From Escherichia coli (GTDB lineage: Bacteria; Pseudomonadota; Gammaproteobacteria; Enterobacterales; Enterobacteriaceae), in the NCBI RefSeq assembly GCF_003334405.1, contig NZ_QOWM01000002.1: a stretch of DNA of 64,000 nucleotides; one strand, 5' to 3'. How positions within the stretch are numbered: position 1 is the stretch's first letter; each line of letters starts with the position of its first letter. Below are positions 2,238 through 47,891 of the stretch, one piece after another. The notes below the pieces were generated by a model that was given only the letters and a program-made list of their open reading frames with translations, was not told where the DNA came from and ran no database searches. The position numbers were made by a program, and so were the translations under genes.

Positions 2238-3327
2238 ACCGCACGATGACGGTAATGGTGGCTGTGCCCTGAAATTTTCCTGTTTCCAGCTCACCACCGA
2301 CCAGATTAACTGGCCAGGCGCGCATATTGACGGTGCCATGCCCGGAAGGATCAACGGGAAGGATACCGTTCTGAAAAGGAATATTTGCAACTCCGCCGCC
2401 GAGATTTTCAATACGAATACCGACATCGGGCACATTGTCTGAACTTCTTCGCCTGGCGACCAGGTTGTACTGGTCTACTACCCCAGTTGTACCGTCGATG
2501 CGCATTTGCAACGAGTTTTTAATCTTTGAAGTATCACCACAGTCATAAGTGATATCAAAGTCTACTGGAGTAAAACCGTCTGGCATGGCATTGCGGGTGG
2601 TAAACTTCTGACCATTGATGAATCCAAAATTAACCTTAATAACATCGCCCTGATTAATTTTGCACGACTGTGGGGCGGTGAGATTTCCCTGAATCGATAA
2701 CTTGACTAAATCATGGAAGTCACCTGTAGACGGGCTTCCCATTCCATCGACCCACGCGCCTTTAATGACGGCAATATCCGTTTTCGGAATGGTCATCGAG
2801 CCGAGAAATGGCTTGGTGACATACAGGGTAAAGGTGGTGTTCGCACCAATATTAACGGGTCCATAACGAGACGTATCACCCTGGCAAACACCCGTTTGGG
2901 TTGCAGCAGAATATACCGTGTTGTTTTTTATCTGTGTGAATCGGGTGTTAACAGAGACAACCTGGTCGGTTGTGAGTCCTGGAATGTCGTTTGCCTGTAA
3001 TGTGGTTTTAATATCCAGGCTGTCATTGAGTTTGTAATATCCTGTCTGATGTCCAGTGGTGGTAAGTACGGGGCTGACCATATAGACAAGTTTAACTGCC
3101 TTACCCGCAGAGCAGGAACAGGCGTATTGCCAGTTAGTGCTACTTAGCGTTGCAGAGGTAAACTCCCGTCCTGTCACGTTATCTGTCTGGTTCACCGTAA
3201 CATCATCAACCACACTGCTGTAATTTGTCGCACCGCTAGTGCTGTCGGCTCCACACCCTCCTGAGGAGGCATAAGCGCAGGATGTGGATATCAACAAAAG
3301 ACCTGTTATAAGAGGCGCTCTTTTCAT
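2236..3327 (-). CDS. yraK: Fimbrial adhesin-like protein (chaperone-usher pilus tip/minor subunit)
   Basis: Track ORF 2236..3585 trimmed to internal ATG at 3327, giving MKRAPLITGLLLISTSCAYA (signal peptide), 363 aa; last gene of the yraHIJK operon. Confidence 0.8.
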   Translation of the reverse strand: MKRAPLITGLLLISTSCAYASSGGCGADSTSGATNYSSVVDDVTVNQTDNVTGREFTSATLSSTNWQYACSCSAGKAVKLVYMVSPVLTTTGHQTGYYKLNDSLDIKTTLQANDIPGLTTDQVVSVNTRFTQIKNNTVYSAATQTGVCQGDTSRYGPVNIGANTTFTLYVTKPFLGSMTIPKTDIAVIKGAWVDGMGSPSTGDFHDLVKLSIQGNLTAPQSCKINQGDVIKVNFGFINGQKFTTRNAMPDGFTPVDFDITYDCGDTSKIKNSLQMRIDGTTGVVDQYNLVARRRSSDNVPDVGIRIENLGGGVANIPFQNGILPVDPSGHGTVNMRAWPVNLVGGELETGKFQGTATITVIVR

Positions 3328-8398: not shown

Positions 8399-9190
8399 TT
8401 ACAAAATGCCGAATGCGGAACAAACAATAGAGAGCATAAAAGTCACGCCGATTAACAGCACCGGATGCGCTTTTTTCACCCGCAGGAAGTAATACATCAG
8501 CAGGGTGTAGGCCATCGGTAAAATGTTCGGGAAGACTTTATCGAAGAAATCCTGCTGCAGCGCAACGCTGTGGGTATTGTCGATGGCAAACGATGTCACC
8601 ACGTTAATATGCACATACGAAGCGATCAGCCCGCCGATTACCGTGATCCCGAGGATGGTTGCCGAACGGGCAATCATCTGCGAGTTCTCTCGCACTTTAT
8701 CGATCGCCTTCACGCCGACTGAATAACCGACGTGGGTCCAGCCGACGCGCAGGAAAAAGATAAGCAGGTAAACGGCGAAAAATAGAATCGGCCCCAGCAG
8801 GTTTCCCTGGCTGGCAAATGATGAGCAAATTCCCGCCATAATCGGCAACAAAGTAAACCAGAAAATCGCATCGCCAATCCCGGCGATTGGGCCAAACAGT
8901 GCCACTTTGAGGCCTTTAATGGTGTCGCGGTTTTCTCCTTTTTCTTCCATCGAAATTAATAACCCCATCAGGAATCCGACCAGATTCGGGTGGGTATTAA
9001 TAAATTCGAGGTTATCTTTCATCGCCGCGCTTAAGCCCGGTTTGTCGTCCTTATAAATCTTTTTCAGGATCGGCAACATCGCCCAGGTAAAACCGCCCGC
9101 CTGCATCCTTTCGTAGTTAAAGCTCGCTTGCAGCAGCGACGAACGAAAGCCCAGACGGGTGATATCTTTTTTACTGATTTCAGATCCCAT
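8399..9190 (-). CDS. agaD: PTS galactosamine-specific EIID component
   Basis: Track ORF trimmed to internal ATG at 9190 (MGSEISKKDITRLGFRSSLLQASFNYERMQAGGF...), 263 aa, mannose-family IID signature; overlaps agaC end by 11 nt. Confidence 0.85.
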   Translation of the reverse strand: MGSEISKKDITRLGFRSSLLQASFNYERMQAGGFTWAMLPILKKIYKDDKPGLSAAMKDNLEFINTHPNLVGFLMGLLISMEEKGENRDTIKGLKVALFGPIAGIGDAIFWFTLLPIMAGICSSFASQGNLLGPILFFAVYLLIFFLRVGWTHVGYSVGVKAIDKVRENSQMIARSATILGITVIGGLIASYVHINVVTSFAIDNTHSVALQQDFFDKVFPNILPMAYTLLMYYFLRVKKAHPVLLIGVTFMLSIVCSAFGIL

Positions 9191-13042: not shown

Positions 13043-14176
13043 TCAAAACGAAGCTAATTGACCCTGAATCCAGATTTGTTGCACATGTAGCCCGCTATCC
13101 AGCGCAACGACGCTGGCGCGTTTGCCCGGTTTAAGCGATCCCAGAACACCATCAACACCCAGCATTCGCGCCGGATGCAGCGACGCCATATGGATGGCTT
13201 CCGCAGGCGTTACGCCCGTCAACTCGACCATATTGCGCACTGCCGCATCAACAGACAGCGTACTGCCCGCCAGCCCACCAGACGCGGTACGGACAACGCC
13301 ACCGTGCATCTGCACTTCTTCACCACATAACGTATAGCGACCATCCGGCATCCCAGCTGCCTGCATCGCGTCGGTGATCAGTACGATTCTCTCTTTCGCA
13401 CAGCAACAACACAGCGACATTGCCGCCGGATGCACATGATGACCATCGGCTATCAGTTCCAGCCAGGCGCGCTTGTCCGTTAATCCCGCGCCAACCATTC
13501 CCGGTTCGCGGTGATGTAAACCTGTCATCCCGTTATAGCAATGCACCAGGCCGTCGGCACCAGCATCAAATGCGGCGCGGGTTTGTTGCCAGGTCGCCGC
13601 GCTATGCCCCAGCATCACCCTTACGTTTTGCTGTTTAAGATGGCGGATGGCCTGCAATGCCCCTTCTTTTTCCGGTGCCAGCGCTACCACACGTAAGGTG
13701 TGCTGAGAAACGGCAATCAACTGATCCAGCTCGGCAATTTCAAGCTCGCGAAACAACTCCGGCGGATGCGCGCCTTTATTCTGCGGCGTGAAGTACGGTC
13801 CTTCGAGATAACTCCCCAGCACTTGCGCACCAGGTCCGCCGCGTTGGCAACGTTGAGCAATACGTTTCAGCGCCGCATGAATGGTATTAAGCGGCGTGGT
13901 TACGGTGGTCGGTAACCAACTGCCGACACCTTCGCGTGCCTTGTGCATTGCCAGCTTGTCGAGTACATCCGGCGCGTCATCCATTACATCAACGCCCGCA
14001 CCACCGTGTACATGGGTGTCGATGTAAGCAGGGCAGAGCAGTTCCGCATCGCGTTCAGTCACGCCCGCTGGAATCGGTTCGATTGCTGCGATGACACCGT
14101 CAGCAATACGCAACTGATGGTCATCGAGCCATCCCTCTTCAGTCAGCAGCCTTCTGGCGCGCAGAACGTGTGTCAT
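13043..14176 (-). CDS. agaA: N-acetylgalactosamine-6-phosphate deacetylase, full length
   Basis: Track ORF trimmed to ATG at 14176 (MTHVLRARRLLTEEGWLDDHQL...), NagA-like amidohydrolase motifs (…YIDTHVHGGAG…). Its ATG overlaps the agaF stop as ATGA. Confidence 0.85.
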   Translation of the reverse strand: MTHVLRARRLLTEEGWLDDHQLRIADGVIAAIEPIPAGVTERDAELLCPAYIDTHVHGGAGVDVMDDAPDVLDKLAMHKAREGVGSWLPTTVTTPLNTIHAALKRIAQRCQRGGPGAQVLGSYLEGPYFTPQNKGAHPPELFRELEIAELDQLIAVSQHTLRVVALAPEKEGALQAIRHLKQQNVRVMLGHSAATWQQTRAAFDAGADGLVHCYNGMTGLHHREPGMVGAGLTDKRAWLELIADGHHVHPAAMSLCCCCAKERIVLITDAMQAAGMPDGRYTLCGEEVQMHGGVVRTASGGLAGSTLSVDAAVRNMVELTGVTPAEAIHMASLHPARMLGVDGVLGSLKPGKRASVVALDSGLHVQQIWIQGQLASF

Positions 14177-14607
14177 ATTCCTTCCTCGACCGGACATTCT
14201 TCATGGCAGCGGCCTAACTCGTCCACCAGACTGGTCAGCCCTCGGTGTCCACACTCCAGCGCCTGTACACGGAATTCTTCACCGCTTAACCCTTCGCGCT
14301 CCAGCACCATCTCCAGTAGCAGTTGCAAATTGGTGCCGGTGATCACTTCACAGCCCGGTTTTTGCATCGCCAGCGTTGAAGCTACGCGAAACGGCGTGCC
14401 GCCCAGCAAATCCGTCAGAAAAACAATGCCGTCTTCACAATCCAGTTGGGCGATGGCCTCTTCAAGCTGCGATGTAAGCAGCGCGGTGCTTGAGGTTTCC
14501 GGAAAATCGATGGCGATAAACTGCGATTGCTCACCGAGAATTTGCTTCATTGCTTTTTCCATGCCGCTGGCAAACCCGCCATGCCCTGTCAAAATAATAC
14601 TTAACAT
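14173..14607 (-). CDS. agaF: PTS N-acetylgalactosamine-specific EIIA component
   Basis: 144-aa ORF MLSIILTGHGGFASGMEKAMKQILGEQ..., mannose-family IIA. Confidence 0.85.
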   Translation of the reverse strand: MLSIILTGHGGFASGMEKAMKQILGEQSQFIAIDFPETSSTALLTSQLEEAIAQLDCEDGIVFLTDLLGGTPFRVASTLAMQKPGCEVITGTNLQLLLEMVLEREGLSGEEFRVQALECGHRGLTSLVDELGRCHEECPVEEGI

Positions 14608-14624
14608 CTAATACCTCATTGTAT

Positions 14625-15503
14625 TTAAAGGAAATGGCAGAATTTACCGACGATGCCGAGAACCACGGTAACTGCAATCAGACGCAGCGGACTCCAGCCG
14701 CGGCGTACCAACCAAAACATGGTCAGGGTGTAGACCAACGGTAAGAAGGCCGGCATCAGTTTGTCGATAACATCAGCCTGTAACTTAACCACTGCGTCGC
14801 CCGCCGTGATTTCCAGCGTGGTGCTTAAACGAACATAGGTTGCCACCAGCGCACCGATTACCGTCATCCCAACGATAGACGCAGCATGGCCGACTTTTTT
14901 GGTATTCGCTTTAATCAGTGGAATCGCCGCCACGCCCATGCGGTAAGCATAATGCGCCAGACCAAAACGCAGCCCCAGGTGTACCACGTTGAACAGCACA
15001 ATAAAGACGACTGCGCCAAGAATGGAGCCTTGCAATGCCAGACTGGCTCCAATCCCGCCACAAATCGGCAGTAGCGTTAGCCAGAACATTGCATCGCCAA
15101 TCCCGCCAAGCGGCGCACCGACGGCAATTTTGGTGCTCTGAATACTGTTAACGTCCTGCTTAGAACGCTCCATCGCAAGGATAATGCCGATAACAAACGT
15201 CACCAGAAACGGATGGGTATTGAAGAAACCCATATGCCCCTTCATGGCGCGCGCCAGGTCGCGTTTATTAGTGTGGATCTTTTTCAGAGCAGGCAGCAGA
15301 CCGTACAACCAGCCAGAAGCCTGCATACGTTCGTAGTTAAAAGACGCTTGTAACAGCATGGAACGCCAGGCGACGCGGTTGATATCTTTTTTCGTCAGCT
15401 CCGCGCCAATGCTCTGATCTTCATACACGTTTTCATTGACGCCAGTCAGCAATGTTTCTTCGTTTTCACTGACGTTCGGCAGGGTGGTTTGATTAGATGC
15501 CAT
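14625..15503 (-). CDS. agaE: PTS N-acetylgalactosamine-specific EIID component
   Basis: Track ORF begins at a TTG; trimmed to first ATG at 15503 (MASNQTTLPNVSENEETLLTG...), 292 aa; paralogous to AgaD. Confidence 0.85.
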   Translation of the reverse strand: MASNQTTLPNVSENEETLLTGVNENVYEDQSIGAELTKKDINRVAWRSMLLQASFNYERMQASGWLYGLLPALKKIHTNKRDLARAMKGHMGFFNTHPFLVTFVIGIILAMERSKQDVNSIQSTKIAVGAPLGGIGDAMFWLTLLPICGGIGASLALQGSILGAVVFIVLFNVVHLGLRFGLAHYAYRMGVAAIPLIKANTKKVGHAASIVGMTVIGALVATYVRLSTTLEITAGDAVVKLQADVIDKLMPAFLPLVYTLTMFWLVRRGWSPLRLIAVTVVLGIVGKFCHFL

Positions 15504-16272
15504 CTTCAAATTCCTCTTTCTGTGCCGCAGGTTGAGTCGGTTCAGGAGATTTACGCAGCAAGTCGATCAGCGCCATCGCCAGCGCAGCGGCAGCAATAGC
15601 CAGCACTGGTAACTTGAGCCAGGCGGCGGCAACAAAGCCCAGGATGAAGTAGGGGATGTAGACGTTTTTCATCATGATTTTCAGCAGCACGGCAAAACCG
15701 ATTGCTGGCATGATGCCGCCCGCGACGCCGAGGCCGTCGATTAATCGTTGCGGCAGGACATCAATGATGGTTTTTGCATGTTCCGCGCCGAAGTAGATAG
15801 GCAGGAAAGCGCAGAGAAAATAGAAAATGCCGAGTGCCAGCAGTGCCAGATAGTTCACGCGTTCAATGCCGCGAGTATCGGCGTTCTCCGCCATCCGGTC
15901 GCAGCGAGACATCACGCCGGACATCACCGAGAACAGGAAGGTAATCCCCATCTGTACTGCGACAGCGAAAGGTACGGCGACACCTACTGCGACATCGGGT
16001 TTCACGCCAGTAGTAATGGCAAACGCCGTGCCGACGATAGTACCGATAATCACGTTAGGCGGCTGTGCGCCCGCCAGCGGGGCCAGCCCCATCCACACCA
16101 GTTCCAGCGTACCGCCGGTTAAAATTCCGGTATGCAGATCGCCAAGTACCAGCCCGACCAACGGGCCGAGGACCACCGGGCGGTGCATATGGGTTAGGCC
16201 GTTAAACATATCCAGGCCAGCGATAAAGGCGATAATGCCCAACGCAAATGCCTGCAACAGGCTGATTTCCAT
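15493..16272 (-). CDS. agaW: PTS N-acetylgalactosamine-specific EIIC component, full length
   Basis: 259-aa hydrophobic ORF MEISLLQAFALGIIAFIAGLDMFNGL...; paralogous to AgaC. Confidence 0.85.
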   Translation of the reverse strand: MEISLLQAFALGIIAFIAGLDMFNGLTHMHRPVVLGPLVGLVLGDLHTGILTGGTLELVWMGLAPLAGAQPPNVIIGTIVGTAFAITTGVKPDVAVGVAVPFAVAVQMGITFLFSVMSGVMSRCDRMAENADTRGIERVNYLALLALGIFYFLCAFLPIYFGAEHAKTIIDVLPQRLIDGLGVAGGIMPAIGFAVLLKIMMKNVYIPYFILGFVAAAWLKLPVLAIAAAALAMALIDLLRKSPEPTQPAAQKEEFEDGI

Positions 16273-45905: not shown

Positions 45906-46298
45906 TTACCACTTTTTATTCAGCAGGCGGTCGATGCTATACGCGCCCGGACCGGTAATTGCCAGCAGCAGGAATCCGCCAGAAATTGTCAGGTTTTTCA
46001 TGAACATCAGCGAGTTGACGCCTTCAGCAAAGTTGCTGTGAAATAAAAATGCCGTCAGCAGCGTAAAGCCCGCAGTAAACAGGGCTGTGGTGCGAGTCAG
46101 GAAACCGAACAGGATTGCCAGACCACCACCAAACTCAAGCAGAATCACCAGCGGCAGCATAAAACCCGGGACGCCCATTGCTTCCATATATTGTTGGGTA
46201 CCCGCGTAGCCAGTAATTTTTCCCCAGCCAGCGGTAATAAACAGAATCGGCATTAAAATGCGCGCTACCAGTACACCAACATCTTCTAATTTTTTCAT
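45906..46298 (-). CDS. yqjF: DoxX-family inner-membrane protein
   Basis: Track ORF trimmed to ATG at 46298 (MKKLEDVGVLVARILMPILFITAGWGKITGYAG...), 130 aa. Confidence 0.8.
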   Translation of the reverse strand: MKKLEDVGVLVARILMPILFITAGWGKITGYAGTQQYMEAMGVPGFMLPLVILLEFGGGLAILFGFLTRTTALFTAGFTLLTAFLFHSNFAEGVNSLMFMKNLTISGGFLLLAITGPGAYSIDRLLNKKW

Positions 46299-46483
46299 CA
46301 TACTCTCCACTGCGCCACTCAGGCTGCTGATTGTTTTTTTGTGCAATGGCGCGGTATTAGCGTCGTTGCTGTCGATGGAGAGAATCATAAACGTGGTGAA
46401 TGATGATTGTTAGCAAGGAAAACTGTCAAAAATCTTCAAAAAATTTGAGGGATAAGGCCGGAATGGCTCCGGCCAGAGGGAAG

Positions 46484-46783
46484 TTAACCGCGAAGCTGTT
46501 GCTGCTTGAGGGTCGTTTTAACCAGACGCCAGGCGCTCCATACGCCAAAACCGCGTCTGGCCCAGCGGACCAGCATATTAGGATGGCGAATCGTCCAGAT
46601 CGCCATCACGCTACTGCCAACCAGCGCCCAGGAGCGCAGACTTAGCAGCATATTCCAGCGACGATCGTAAGCGCCTGTTGTCTCCAGCCATTCACGACGA
46701 CTGGCGGAAAGATCCAGCCGTTGTTGCTGGATCTGGCTAAGCAGTTGCGCCTTACGTCGTTCACGTTCGACTTTACTGCTCAC
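46484..46783 (-). CDS. yqjK: Small protein YqjK
   Basis: 99-aa ORF, GTG start in the track; overlaps the 3-prime end of yqjE by 11 nt. Confidence 0.65.
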   Translation of the reverse strand: MSSKVERERRKAQLLSQIQQQRLDLSASRREWLETTGAYDRRWNMLLSLRSWALVGSSVMAIWTIRHPNMLVRWARRGFGVWSAWRLVKTTLKQQQLRG

Positions 46784-47177
46784 GGGACTCCTCCTCGAGC
46801 AGCTGCCGATCGTTTGCTAACTCATGGCGTGTATGGCGCAGCAACGTAGACTTACGCGATTTACGTAGCGTCCAGATACCGCCAATCAGTGCCAGTAGCA
46901 GCAACACCACGGTGGTGGCAATCATCGCATTCAGGCGATATTGCGGGTCAACCGCCCAAATAATTAGCACCATCAGGCTCATAAGACCAAATGCAGCGAA
47001 AAGCATCGTCAGGCCCAGCATCAGTAAAAGTTGAAAGAGATTCGCTTTTTCCTCTTCCAGCTCCACCACCGCCAGCCGCAGACGTGTCTCTACCATTTCA
47101 ACCATGATAGAAACAATTCGCTGCCCGATGCCCAGAACGCTTTTACCGGGCCCTTGTGCGTGATGAGTGTCCGCCAT
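46773..47177 (-). CDS. yqjE: Inner-membrane protein YqjE (DUF1469)
   Basis: Track ORF trimmed to ATG at 47177 (MADTHHAQGPGKSVLGIGQRIVSIMVEMVETRLRL...), 134 aa. Confidence 0.8.
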   Translation of the reverse strand: MADTHHAQGPGKSVLGIGQRIVSIMVEMVETRLRLAVVELEEEKANLFQLLLMLGLTMLFAAFGLMSLMVLIIWAVDPQYRLNAMIATTVVLLLLALIGGIWTLRKSRKSTLLRHTRHELANDRQLLEEESREQ

Positions 47178-47179
47178 AA

Positions 47180-47485
47180 TTAACGACGCGACAGCAGAAC
47201 GCCGAGCACTACACCGATTGCAGCGCCAATGCCCACGCCCGTCCACGGATTTTCGCGCACATACTCATCGGCACGCGCCGCCGCGACACGGGTTTGTTTG
47301 GCAATGGCATCACCGGTTTCACCCAGGCGATAACGGCTCTGTTTCAGTGCCTGCTCCGCTTTGCTACGAATCTTACTCAACTCTTCTTTCGACTTCTCGC
47401 CAGATGAGCTAAGCACCTCTTCCAGCGTATCGGAAAGGGATTTCAACTCAGCACGCAGATGTTCCGTAGTGTGTTCTTTCGACAT
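47180..47485 (-). CDS. yqjD: Ribosome-associated membrane-anchored protein YqjD (ElaB paralogue)
   Basis: 101-aa ORF MSKEHTTEHLRAELKSLSDTLEEVLSSSGEKSKEEL... with a C-terminal transmembrane helix. Confidence 0.85.
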   Translation of the reverse strand: MSKEHTTEHLRAELKSLSDTLEEVLSSSGEKSKEELSKIRSKAEQALKQSRYRLGETGDAIAKQTRVAAARADEYVRENPWTGVGIGAAIGVVLGVLLSRR

Positions 47486-47522
47486 AGTTTTCTCCAGGTG
47501 AGTAAGTAGTGACTATTGTGAG

Positions 47523-47891
47523 TTAGTAGTCGCGCGCTTCCAGCTTTTTCAGCTCTTCCTGCGCTTCTGCCAGTTTCCGTTCGCGTTTGGCAATCTTATC
47601 GGCATCGCCTTTTTGCTTCGCCTCGGCTAAATCTTGCTGGCGTTCCGCCACCTCATCTTTCTGCTTTGCGATTTTCTTCTGATGATCGGCACGCAGCTGG
47701 CTATCTGAACAGTTGGCCCGGACTTCACTCAGGGCTTTATTCAGACCGTCAATACGATTCTGGTTTTGGTGTTTTTCGGCATAGCTGATCTCCTTAAGGA
47801 TATTTTGCTCCTTTTCCTGACACAGGGTAGTGGCATAACTACCGGCACTAAGAGCAAAGAGAGAAACAGCTAAAGCGATGCGGTATTTCAT
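47523..47891 (-). CDS. yqjC: Periplasmic protein YqjC (DUF1090)
   Basis: Track ORF trimmed to ATG at 47891 (MKYRIALAVSLFALSAGSYATTLCQEKEQ...), signal peptide plus charged coiled-coil-like body. Confidence 0.8.
   Translation of the reverse strand: MKYRIALAVSLFALSAGSYATTLCQEKEQNILKEISYAEKHQNQNRIDGLNKALSEVRANCSDSQLRADHQKKIAKQKDEVAERQQDLAEAKQKGDADKIAKRERKLAEAQEELKKLEARDY

Follow-up and report, generated by a model that had tools for sequence, protein, structure and literature searches.

Conserved tight junctions in yqjD-yqjE-yqjK, the last three cistrons of the Escherichia coli yqjCDEK operon, and a proposed scheme for their translation

Classic translationally coupled overlapping gene pairs include trpE-trpD and trpB-trpA, for which coupling was shown genetically. 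In such pairs only a few bases separate the stop codon of the first gene from the next start codon, or the two overlap, as in the genes described here, and the downstream gene may have no ribosome-binding site of its own, which is likewise the case for yqjE. Whereas coupling in the trp operon was proved by genetics, in yqjDEK we infer it, and yqjK differs in having a strong site of its own. The yqjCDEK genes form a co-transcribed operon in E. coli, with sigma-S-dependent promoters both ahead of yqjC and within it; translation of yqjC and of yqjD is repressed by CsrA, in the case of yqjD via its leader (PMC10746276). YqjD sits in the inner membrane by a tail anchor, binds ribosomes and, in stationary phase, blocks translation; together with ElaB and YgaM it is described as a tail-anchored hibernation factor that obstructs the ribosomal exit tunnel, and in vitro the purified YqjD protein inhibits translation on its own (bioRxiv 10.1101/2024.08.16.608256). 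[quoted passage not shown] YqjE and YqjK themselves are still counted in the "y-ome", the set of uncharacterised E. coli genes (PMC11551758). A comparable group is found in Pseudomonas aeruginosa, where PA3040-PA3042 comprise a DUF883 (YqjD-like) gene, a YqjE-like gene and a third small gene, the frames lying less than 15 bp apart; these genes are highly expressed in stationary phase and respond to envelope stress (PMC11302039).

The window, that is, the whole stretch of 64,000 nucleotides of E. coli DNA that was analysed, carries this locus with the following gene models, which come from the open reading frames and from RefSeq.

47485 to 47180, minus strand: yqjD coding sequence, ATG start, 101 amino acids, TAA stop at 47182-47180
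47177 to 46773, minus strand: yqjE coding sequence, ATG start at 47177-47175, 134 amino acids, TAA stop at 46775-46773
46783 to 46484, minus strand: yqjK coding sequence, GTG start, 99 amino acids, TAA stop

This is the same locus as yqjCDEK of E. coli K-12, with no difference within the cluster: a 1.4-kb query (46300-47700) is 100% identical to MG1655, and the RefSeq models of MG1655 have the same coordinates for yqjD, yqjE and yqjK. The identity to MG1655, the RefSeq models and the Pfam matches given below all bear out the gene names assigned in the original prediction. In Table S1 of PMC13245402 yqjD is b3098 and yqjE is b3099, yqjK being next. Outside the cluster the window does differ from MG1655, as its aga region is intact and it holds one additional copy of a 113-bp repeat. 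The 1.4-kb yqjD-yqjE-yqjK stretch was found in 5,423 of the 5,426 complete E. coli genomes. Every cistron of yqjCDEK lies on the minus strand, the intergenic gaps do not exceed 37 nt, and the neighbour genes of yqjE are yqjD, yqjK, yqjC and yqjF. A terminator scan of the cluster returned no terminator-like site on the strand of the genes (its single match is on the plus strand, within yqjC), and Rfam gave no match in the yqjD-yqjE-yqjK cluster, the sole match in the window being rnpB. One structure lies just beyond the last gene.

46456 to 46474, minus strand: G+C-rich stem-loop of 7 bp, 10 nt 3' of the yqjK stop, fold z = -1.8

This stem-loop may mark the end of the operon; it was not picked up by the terminator scan and, with a U-run about 12 nt further, it is no canonical intrinsic terminator. 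The architecture of yqjD-yqjE-yqjK is that of an ordinary operon and not of a new kind of system, and we consider it likely that the whole is explained by these being the last three cistrons of the already known yqjCDEK operon, translated according to the scheme proposed below. The operon, its control by sigma-S and CsrA, the hibernation role of YqjD and the synteny of DUF883, yqjE and yqjK genes are already published; the additions made here are small, and concern the switching of the yqjK start codon at a fixed position, a yqjE gene devoid of a ribosome-binding site, the probable origin of the yqjE/yqjK overlap in an indel, and the hollowness of the holin label carried by YqjE.

Loci for comparison were collected with a pattern-plus-tblastn scan of species-representative genomes. 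A 55-sequence alignment proved too diverse to serve as a search pattern and a narrower one was used, which returned Enterobacteriaceae only, namely 80 loci in which YqjK identity ranges from 63 to 95%. In all 80, yqjD, yqjE and yqjK are adjacent and in the same order. Purifying selection acts on the three genes (median dN/dS, pairwise against E. coli, of 0.10 for yqjD, 0.055 for yqjE and 0.12 for yqjK), and synonymous divergence is near saturation among the compared loci, with dS often >1. Because the narrower pattern search was confined in its yield to Enterobacteriaceae, the distant context is based on three loci, one Lonsdalea-like and two metagenomic; they keep the order DUF883, Holin-X, YqjK, with overlaps of the yqjE/yqjK type of 4, 8 and 11 nt. 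What goes beyond chance is conservation: in all 80 Enterobacteriaceae loci the three genes abut and the homologous yqjK position holds a start codon.

The start signals of the first two genes are as follows.

47491 to 47495, minus strand: yqjD Shine-Dalgarno sequence GGAGA, 5 nt 5' of the ATG, duplex with the 16S 3' end of -6.4 kcal/mol
47175 to 47182, minus strand: junction of the yqjD stop and the yqjE start, TAA-TT-ATG, a 2-nt gap with no upstream Shine-Dalgarno sequence

The 2-nt gap originally predicted between yqjD and yqjE is therefore exact, and the proximity of stop and start is conserved: the spacer is 2 nt in 69 of the 80 Enterobacteriaceae and 1 nt in 10, so that 79 of the 80 have 1-2 nt and the remaining one a 1-nt overlap. 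The Shine-Dalgarno duplex energy at the yqjE start is +1.1 kcal/mol, the weakest among the 26 annotated starts nearby, and its median over the 80 species is +0.7 kcal/mol; pairing 5' of yqjE is weaker than the random background, which was set by 3,000 random 22-nt windows (median -2.2 kcal/mol). Since yqjE has no Shine-Dalgarno sequence, termination-reinitiation from yqjD fits this junction. Ribosomes that end yqjD at its TAA would probably restart 2 nt further on, at the yqjE ATG, and YqjE output would then track YqjD output, CsrA repression included. In Table S1 of PMC13245402, the YqjD N-terminus MSKEHTTEHLR is entered with Ribo-RET and INRI-seq evidence; the YqjE N-terminus at the annotated ATG is seen there by N-terminomics (peptide MADTHHAQGPGKSVLGIGQR), yet the YqjE row carries no Ribo-RET or INRI-seq evidence. 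A start that is used but has no entry from these two methods fits reinitiation, yet a low expression of yqjE in growing cells could also explain it.

The second junction is an overlap, with three features.

46773 to 46783, minus strand: yqjE/yqjK overlap of 11 nt, GTGAGCAGTAA, from the yqjK GTG to the yqjE TAA
46789 to 46797, minus strand: yqjK Shine-Dalgarno sequence CGAGGAGGA, 5 nt 5' of the GTG, inside the final yqjE codons
46763 to 46813, minus strand: RNA hairpin with an inner 8-bp stem at 46775-46803, the yqjK GTG being paired and the Shine-Dalgarno sequence lying in the loop; specific to Escherichia

The overlap length of 11 nt proposed at the outset is correct to the nucleotide. Across species the genes overlap in 76 of the 80 loci (by 4 nt in 45, 1 nt in 15, 8 nt in 10, 11 nt in 5 and 32 nt in 1) and are separated by a 2-nt gap in the other 4, so that the junction lies between a 2-nt gap and an 11-nt overlap in 79 of 80. 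The commonest state is 4 nt, and the 11-nt state is confined to the 5 Escherichia loci. In the junction alignment the tail of Escherichia yqjE has a 1-nt gap compared with Salmonella, Citrobacter, Enterobacter and others, and the common arrangement of the yqjE stop elsewhere is GTGA or ATGA; the 1-nt gap would shift the ancestral TGA of GTGA out of the yqjE frame, and yqjE would consequently be extended to the next in-frame TAA. YqjE is 134 amino acids long in Escherichia, versus 132 in most others. These observations suggest that the 11-nt overlap is a by-product of an indel in the Escherichia lineage and that the conserved feature is the tight junction. In the same window, agaC and agaD also overlap by 11 nt (window positions 9180-9190), and yqiM, nearby, also has a GTG start; with such examples in the vicinity, an 11-nt overlap or a GTG start is unremarkable when taken alone.

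In the scheme that we propose, yqjK would start at GTG 46783, its Shine-Dalgarno sequence being written into the last yqjE codons, and ribosomes finishing yqjE would terminate 8-10 nt inside yqjK. The GAGGAGGA site belongs to the yqjE-yqjK junction, and here the Shine-Dalgarno energy (-11.8 kcal/mol) is the strongest among the 26 neighbouring starts, none of the 3,000 random windows being as strong. Sites of this GGAGGA type are conserved, with a median of -9.3 kcal/mol over the 80 species, and are located 5-9 nt 5' of the start. If the downstream gene of a coupled pair is examined for its own ribosome-binding site, such a site is absent for yqjE and present for yqjK, in E. coli as in the species medians. 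Because its Shine-Dalgarno sequence is very strong, yqjK may be able to initiate by itself, and coupling is not required for its translation. Translational coupling within yqjD-yqjE-yqjK is a plausible and reasonable interpretation that fits the comparative data, better supported from yqjD to yqjE than from yqjE to yqjK.

A further component could come from RNA structure. The hairpin at the E. coli yqjK start has an energy of -24.8 kcal/mol (z = -2.5), and in Escherichia ribosomes ending yqjE would melt this GTG-pairing hairpin, which could add to the coupling. The yqjK start codon is fully paired in just 13 of the 80 loci, RNAalifold found no consensus pairs in the junction alignment, and a short CUGCU/AGCAG stem has 86.8% pairing versus 86.3% in column shuffles, with no covariation beyond the shuffles. 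A conserved RNA structure at the yqjK start was rejected, the mean z being -0.47 over the 80 loci, and the hairpin is treated as a lineage-specific detail.

The tight junctions could also be mere genome compaction, each cistron being initiated independently: yqjK through its Shine-Dalgarno sequence and perhaps from a transcript of its own, and yqjE by recognition, independent of Shine-Dalgarno pairing, of an unstructured A/U-rich start region. The exceptional strength of the yqjK site agrees with this explanation, as does the UUAAUU immediately 5' of the yqjE ATG, and operons commonly contain overlaps of 1, 4 or 11 nt, such as that of agaC and agaD in the window. According to PMC7043885, E. 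coli initiates correctly genome-wide without Shine-Dalgarno pairing. In addition, global mapping predicts transcription starts upstream of both yqjE and yqjK (as cited in PMC10746276), and such starts would allow uncoupled expression. We nevertheless find independent initiation of each cistron unlikely, because the yqjD/yqjE spacer has been kept at 1-2 nt in all but one of the 80 species despite synonymous divergence near saturation, because pairing before yqjE falls below what random sequence provides, and because the N-terminal peptide of YqjE was detected, yet its row in the table cited above has no Ribo-RET or INRI-seq entry.

On the preferred reading, in which translation of yqjE follows that of yqjD, the likely purpose would be to make YqjD at the inner membrane together with two small partners, YqjE and YqjK. 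YqjD matches Pfam DUF883 (PF05957, E = 4e-13, residues 8-60) and the DUF883_C glycine-zipper anchor (PF19029, E = 2.1e-15, residues 72-101), and hydropathy gives a hydrophobic segment at its C-terminus (residues 81-99). The E. coli paralogues ElaB and YgaM have the same DUF883 family membership and tail-anchor design as YqjD, which scores 92.5 bits against the ElaB model, under the 139-bit cutoff of that model. To our knowledge, the genes for ElaB and YgaM are not beside yqjE-like or yqjK-like genes on the K-12 map. PADLOC gave only a weak match in the cluster, of YqjD to LeoC (21 bits). The in vitro inhibition of translation by purified YqjD alone implies that YqjE and YqjK are dispensable for the core activity. 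A possible but doubtful extension is that YqjD, YqjE and YqjK constitute one membrane ribosome-hibernation module, in which the coupling chain, from CsrA-controlled yqjD through reinitiation at yqjE to the overlapping yqjK, would set the ratio of the products and the very basic YqjK, or YqjE, would tune the hold of YqjD on the ribosome at the membrane and its release; in a smaller variant, CsrA could act directly at the GGA-rich yqjK start region too. The support for the module and for this variant is the conserved adjacency of the genes. A structure prediction for the three proteins fused by linkers, made with a paired alignment of 21 species, was uninformative (pLDDT 56.6, pTM 0.25) and leaves a complex unsupported. 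Natural YqjE-YqjK fusions were considered as evidence of interaction and rejected, the long matches being frameshifted, low-quality assemblies.

YqjE is labelled 'phage holin family protein' in RefSeq. It matches Pfam PF07332 (Phage_holin_3_6, "Holin-X") with E = 4.1e-21 over profile positions 5-115 of 116, and hydropathy gives two strong hydrophobic helices (~58-76 and ~84-102) separated by a short loop and followed by a basic C-terminal tail. It is like phage holins in its small size, two transmembrane helices, charged C-terminal tail and PF07332 match, but it is unlike them in being chromosomal and encoded in a stationary-phase operon, with neither a lysis cassette nor phage relatives. There was no match of YqjE to the PHROG phage families, and a search of 50,697 phage records found no true phage homologue, one of the two matches being to a Salmonella contig and the other to a 1.9-kb fragment that carries no annotation; the surroundings of yqjE contain neither an endolysin gene nor any other lysis gene, so that the lysis cassette expected of a functional phage holin is lacking. 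YqjE is a "phage holin" in name only.

Overexpression of YqjE was reported to arrest growth and raise persistence (Chowdhury et al. 2016, cited by PMC10746276 and PMC11302039). Combined with the Holin-X family, the two transmembrane helices and charged tail, and with a partner gene that is adjacent in 80 of 80 loci and overlapping in 76, this effect could mean that YqjE is a holin-like membrane toxin, that YqjK (or YqjD) is its co-translated moderator and that the overlap fixes the ratio of toxin to partner. Overproduction, however, makes many membrane proteins toxic, YqjE belongs to no PADLOC defence family, and the lack of phage homologues, of a PHROG family and of neighbouring lysis genes described above leaves such a role improbable. 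The Pseudomonas counterparts also argue against it, since overexpression of PA3040 or PA3041 did not inhibit growth, in contrast with the arrest reported for YqjE in E. coli (PMC11302039).

YqjE and YqjK had both been described as small membrane proteins in the original prediction; the description holds for YqjE, with its two strong helices, and is less secure for YqjK, in which hydropathy gives one moderately hydrophobic segment (residues 45-63) with basic residues on either side, in a protein of net charge +13. YqjK matches Pfam PF13997 over the full length of the profile (positions 1-73 of 73, E = 9.5e-25) and aligns end to end with 54 relatives. Its predicted structure consists of two long helices, 2-66 and 68-98, with a hinge at the invariant Pro68 (pLDDT 86.3). 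No PDB match to YqjK was found by Foldseek and none by a profile search against PDB sequences; YqjD and YqjE have no solved relatives either.

The yqjK frame is limited upstream by an in-frame TAG at 46819-46817, 12 codons before GTG 46783, and the GTG is, as had been predicted, the sole start, being the only ATG, GTG or TTG between this TAG and codon 45. The next ATG in the frame is codon 45 itself, and a protein starting there would lose most of the Pfam YqjK domain (residues 14-86); neither this internal ATG nor the one at codon 60 is preceded by a Shine-Dalgarno sequence. Among the 80 loci, the codon homologous to the GTG is ATG in 39, GTG in 38 and TTG in 3, never a non-start codon, and it is the sole candidate start in 64. 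At an internal valine, methionine or leucine codon one would expect drift to synonyms that are not start codons, so this pattern strongly supports the annotated start. The family as a whole conserves both the Met-Ser-x-Lys N-terminus and the length of the protein, and longer database entries are C-terminal read-throughs, in-frame internal duplications or upstream-ATG calls. Rare E. coli strains have TGG in place of the upstream TAG; the frame then reaches an ATG 14 codons further 5', and gene calls of 113 amino acids result. Supplements from the papers on INRI-seq, TRAINSPOTTER and acid-stress profiling, as searched here, gave no start-site, expression or peptide evidence for YqjK, which is not among the entries in the available part of Table S1 of PMC13245402; its N-terminal tryptic peptide is undetectable, MSSK being too short. 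That yqjK is mis-annotated, starting elsewhere or being untranslated, would agree with the silence of these supplements and with the 113-residue calls, but is very improbable in view of the low dN/dS in the annotated frame, a start codon that switches between ATG, GTG and TTG at the homologous position of every locus, the Shine-Dalgarno sequence conserved 5-9 nt upstream of it, the conserved N-terminus and length, and the internal ATGs devoid of such a sequence.

Proteins of the YqjD type have only recently been recognised as a class of ribosome-hibernation factors, and YqjE and YqjK are their conserved neighbours. For the design of knock-outs and reporters in this operon, it matters that yqjE probably depends on the translation of yqjD and that the start and the ribosome-binding site of yqjK are located inside yqjE; for these two reasons, a clean deletion of yqjD or yqjE is likely to alter the expression of the genes downstream of it.

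The TAG that precedes yqjK in frame, at 46817-46819 of the window, is replaced by TGG in certain strains of E. coli (seen at loci L002 and L005 and in protein P0007), which opens an ATG lying 14 codons upstream (46825-46823) and leads to gene calls of 113 amino acids. No Shine-Dalgarno sequence was seen by eye before this upstream ATG. YqjK also varies within its N-terminal helix, where in-frame tandem duplications of 10-13 residues are found around LDLSASRREW (variants P0003, P0016 and P0031); such duplications occur in certain isolates of E. coli, Shigella and Salmonella. In several UniRef and NCBI records, proteins of the YqjK family bear the name 'Cell division protein FtsH'. This name looks like a propagated mis-annotation, because the protein has about 98 amino acids and PF13997, the Pfam YqjK family, is its only match.

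YqjD (47183-47485) weakly matches the PADLOC model LeoC (E = 7.4e-5, 21 bits), the match covering positions 104-201 of the 207 in the profile. At L082, a distant G+C-rich metagenomic locus, a fourth co-directional gene (2795-3163, 122 amino acids) begins 3 nt past the yqjK homologue, and a Pfam search of its product gave no hit. In the window, the yqjF frame (45906-46388) has 160 open codons counted from an upstream ATG, while the RefSeq yqjF is shorter, with 130 amino acids and a start at 46298.

Two other regions were compared with the K-12 record MG1655. Three 113-nt units stand in tandem at 26718-27056, the other two matching the first one at 92% and 62% identity; this array starts within the 3' end of rnpB (26381-26757), and MG1655 is 113 bp shorter here than the window. 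In the aga (N-acetylgalactosamine) cluster, which in K-12 contains truncated pseudogenes, about 2.3 kb (13602-15896) have no counterpart in MG1655. It follows that the window derives from an E. coli other than K-12, one whose aga region is apparently intact. In the same cluster agaC and agaD, on the minus strand, also overlap by 11 nt (9180-9190, measured with the K-12 gene models), so that an 11-nt overlap is not special to yqjE and yqjK.
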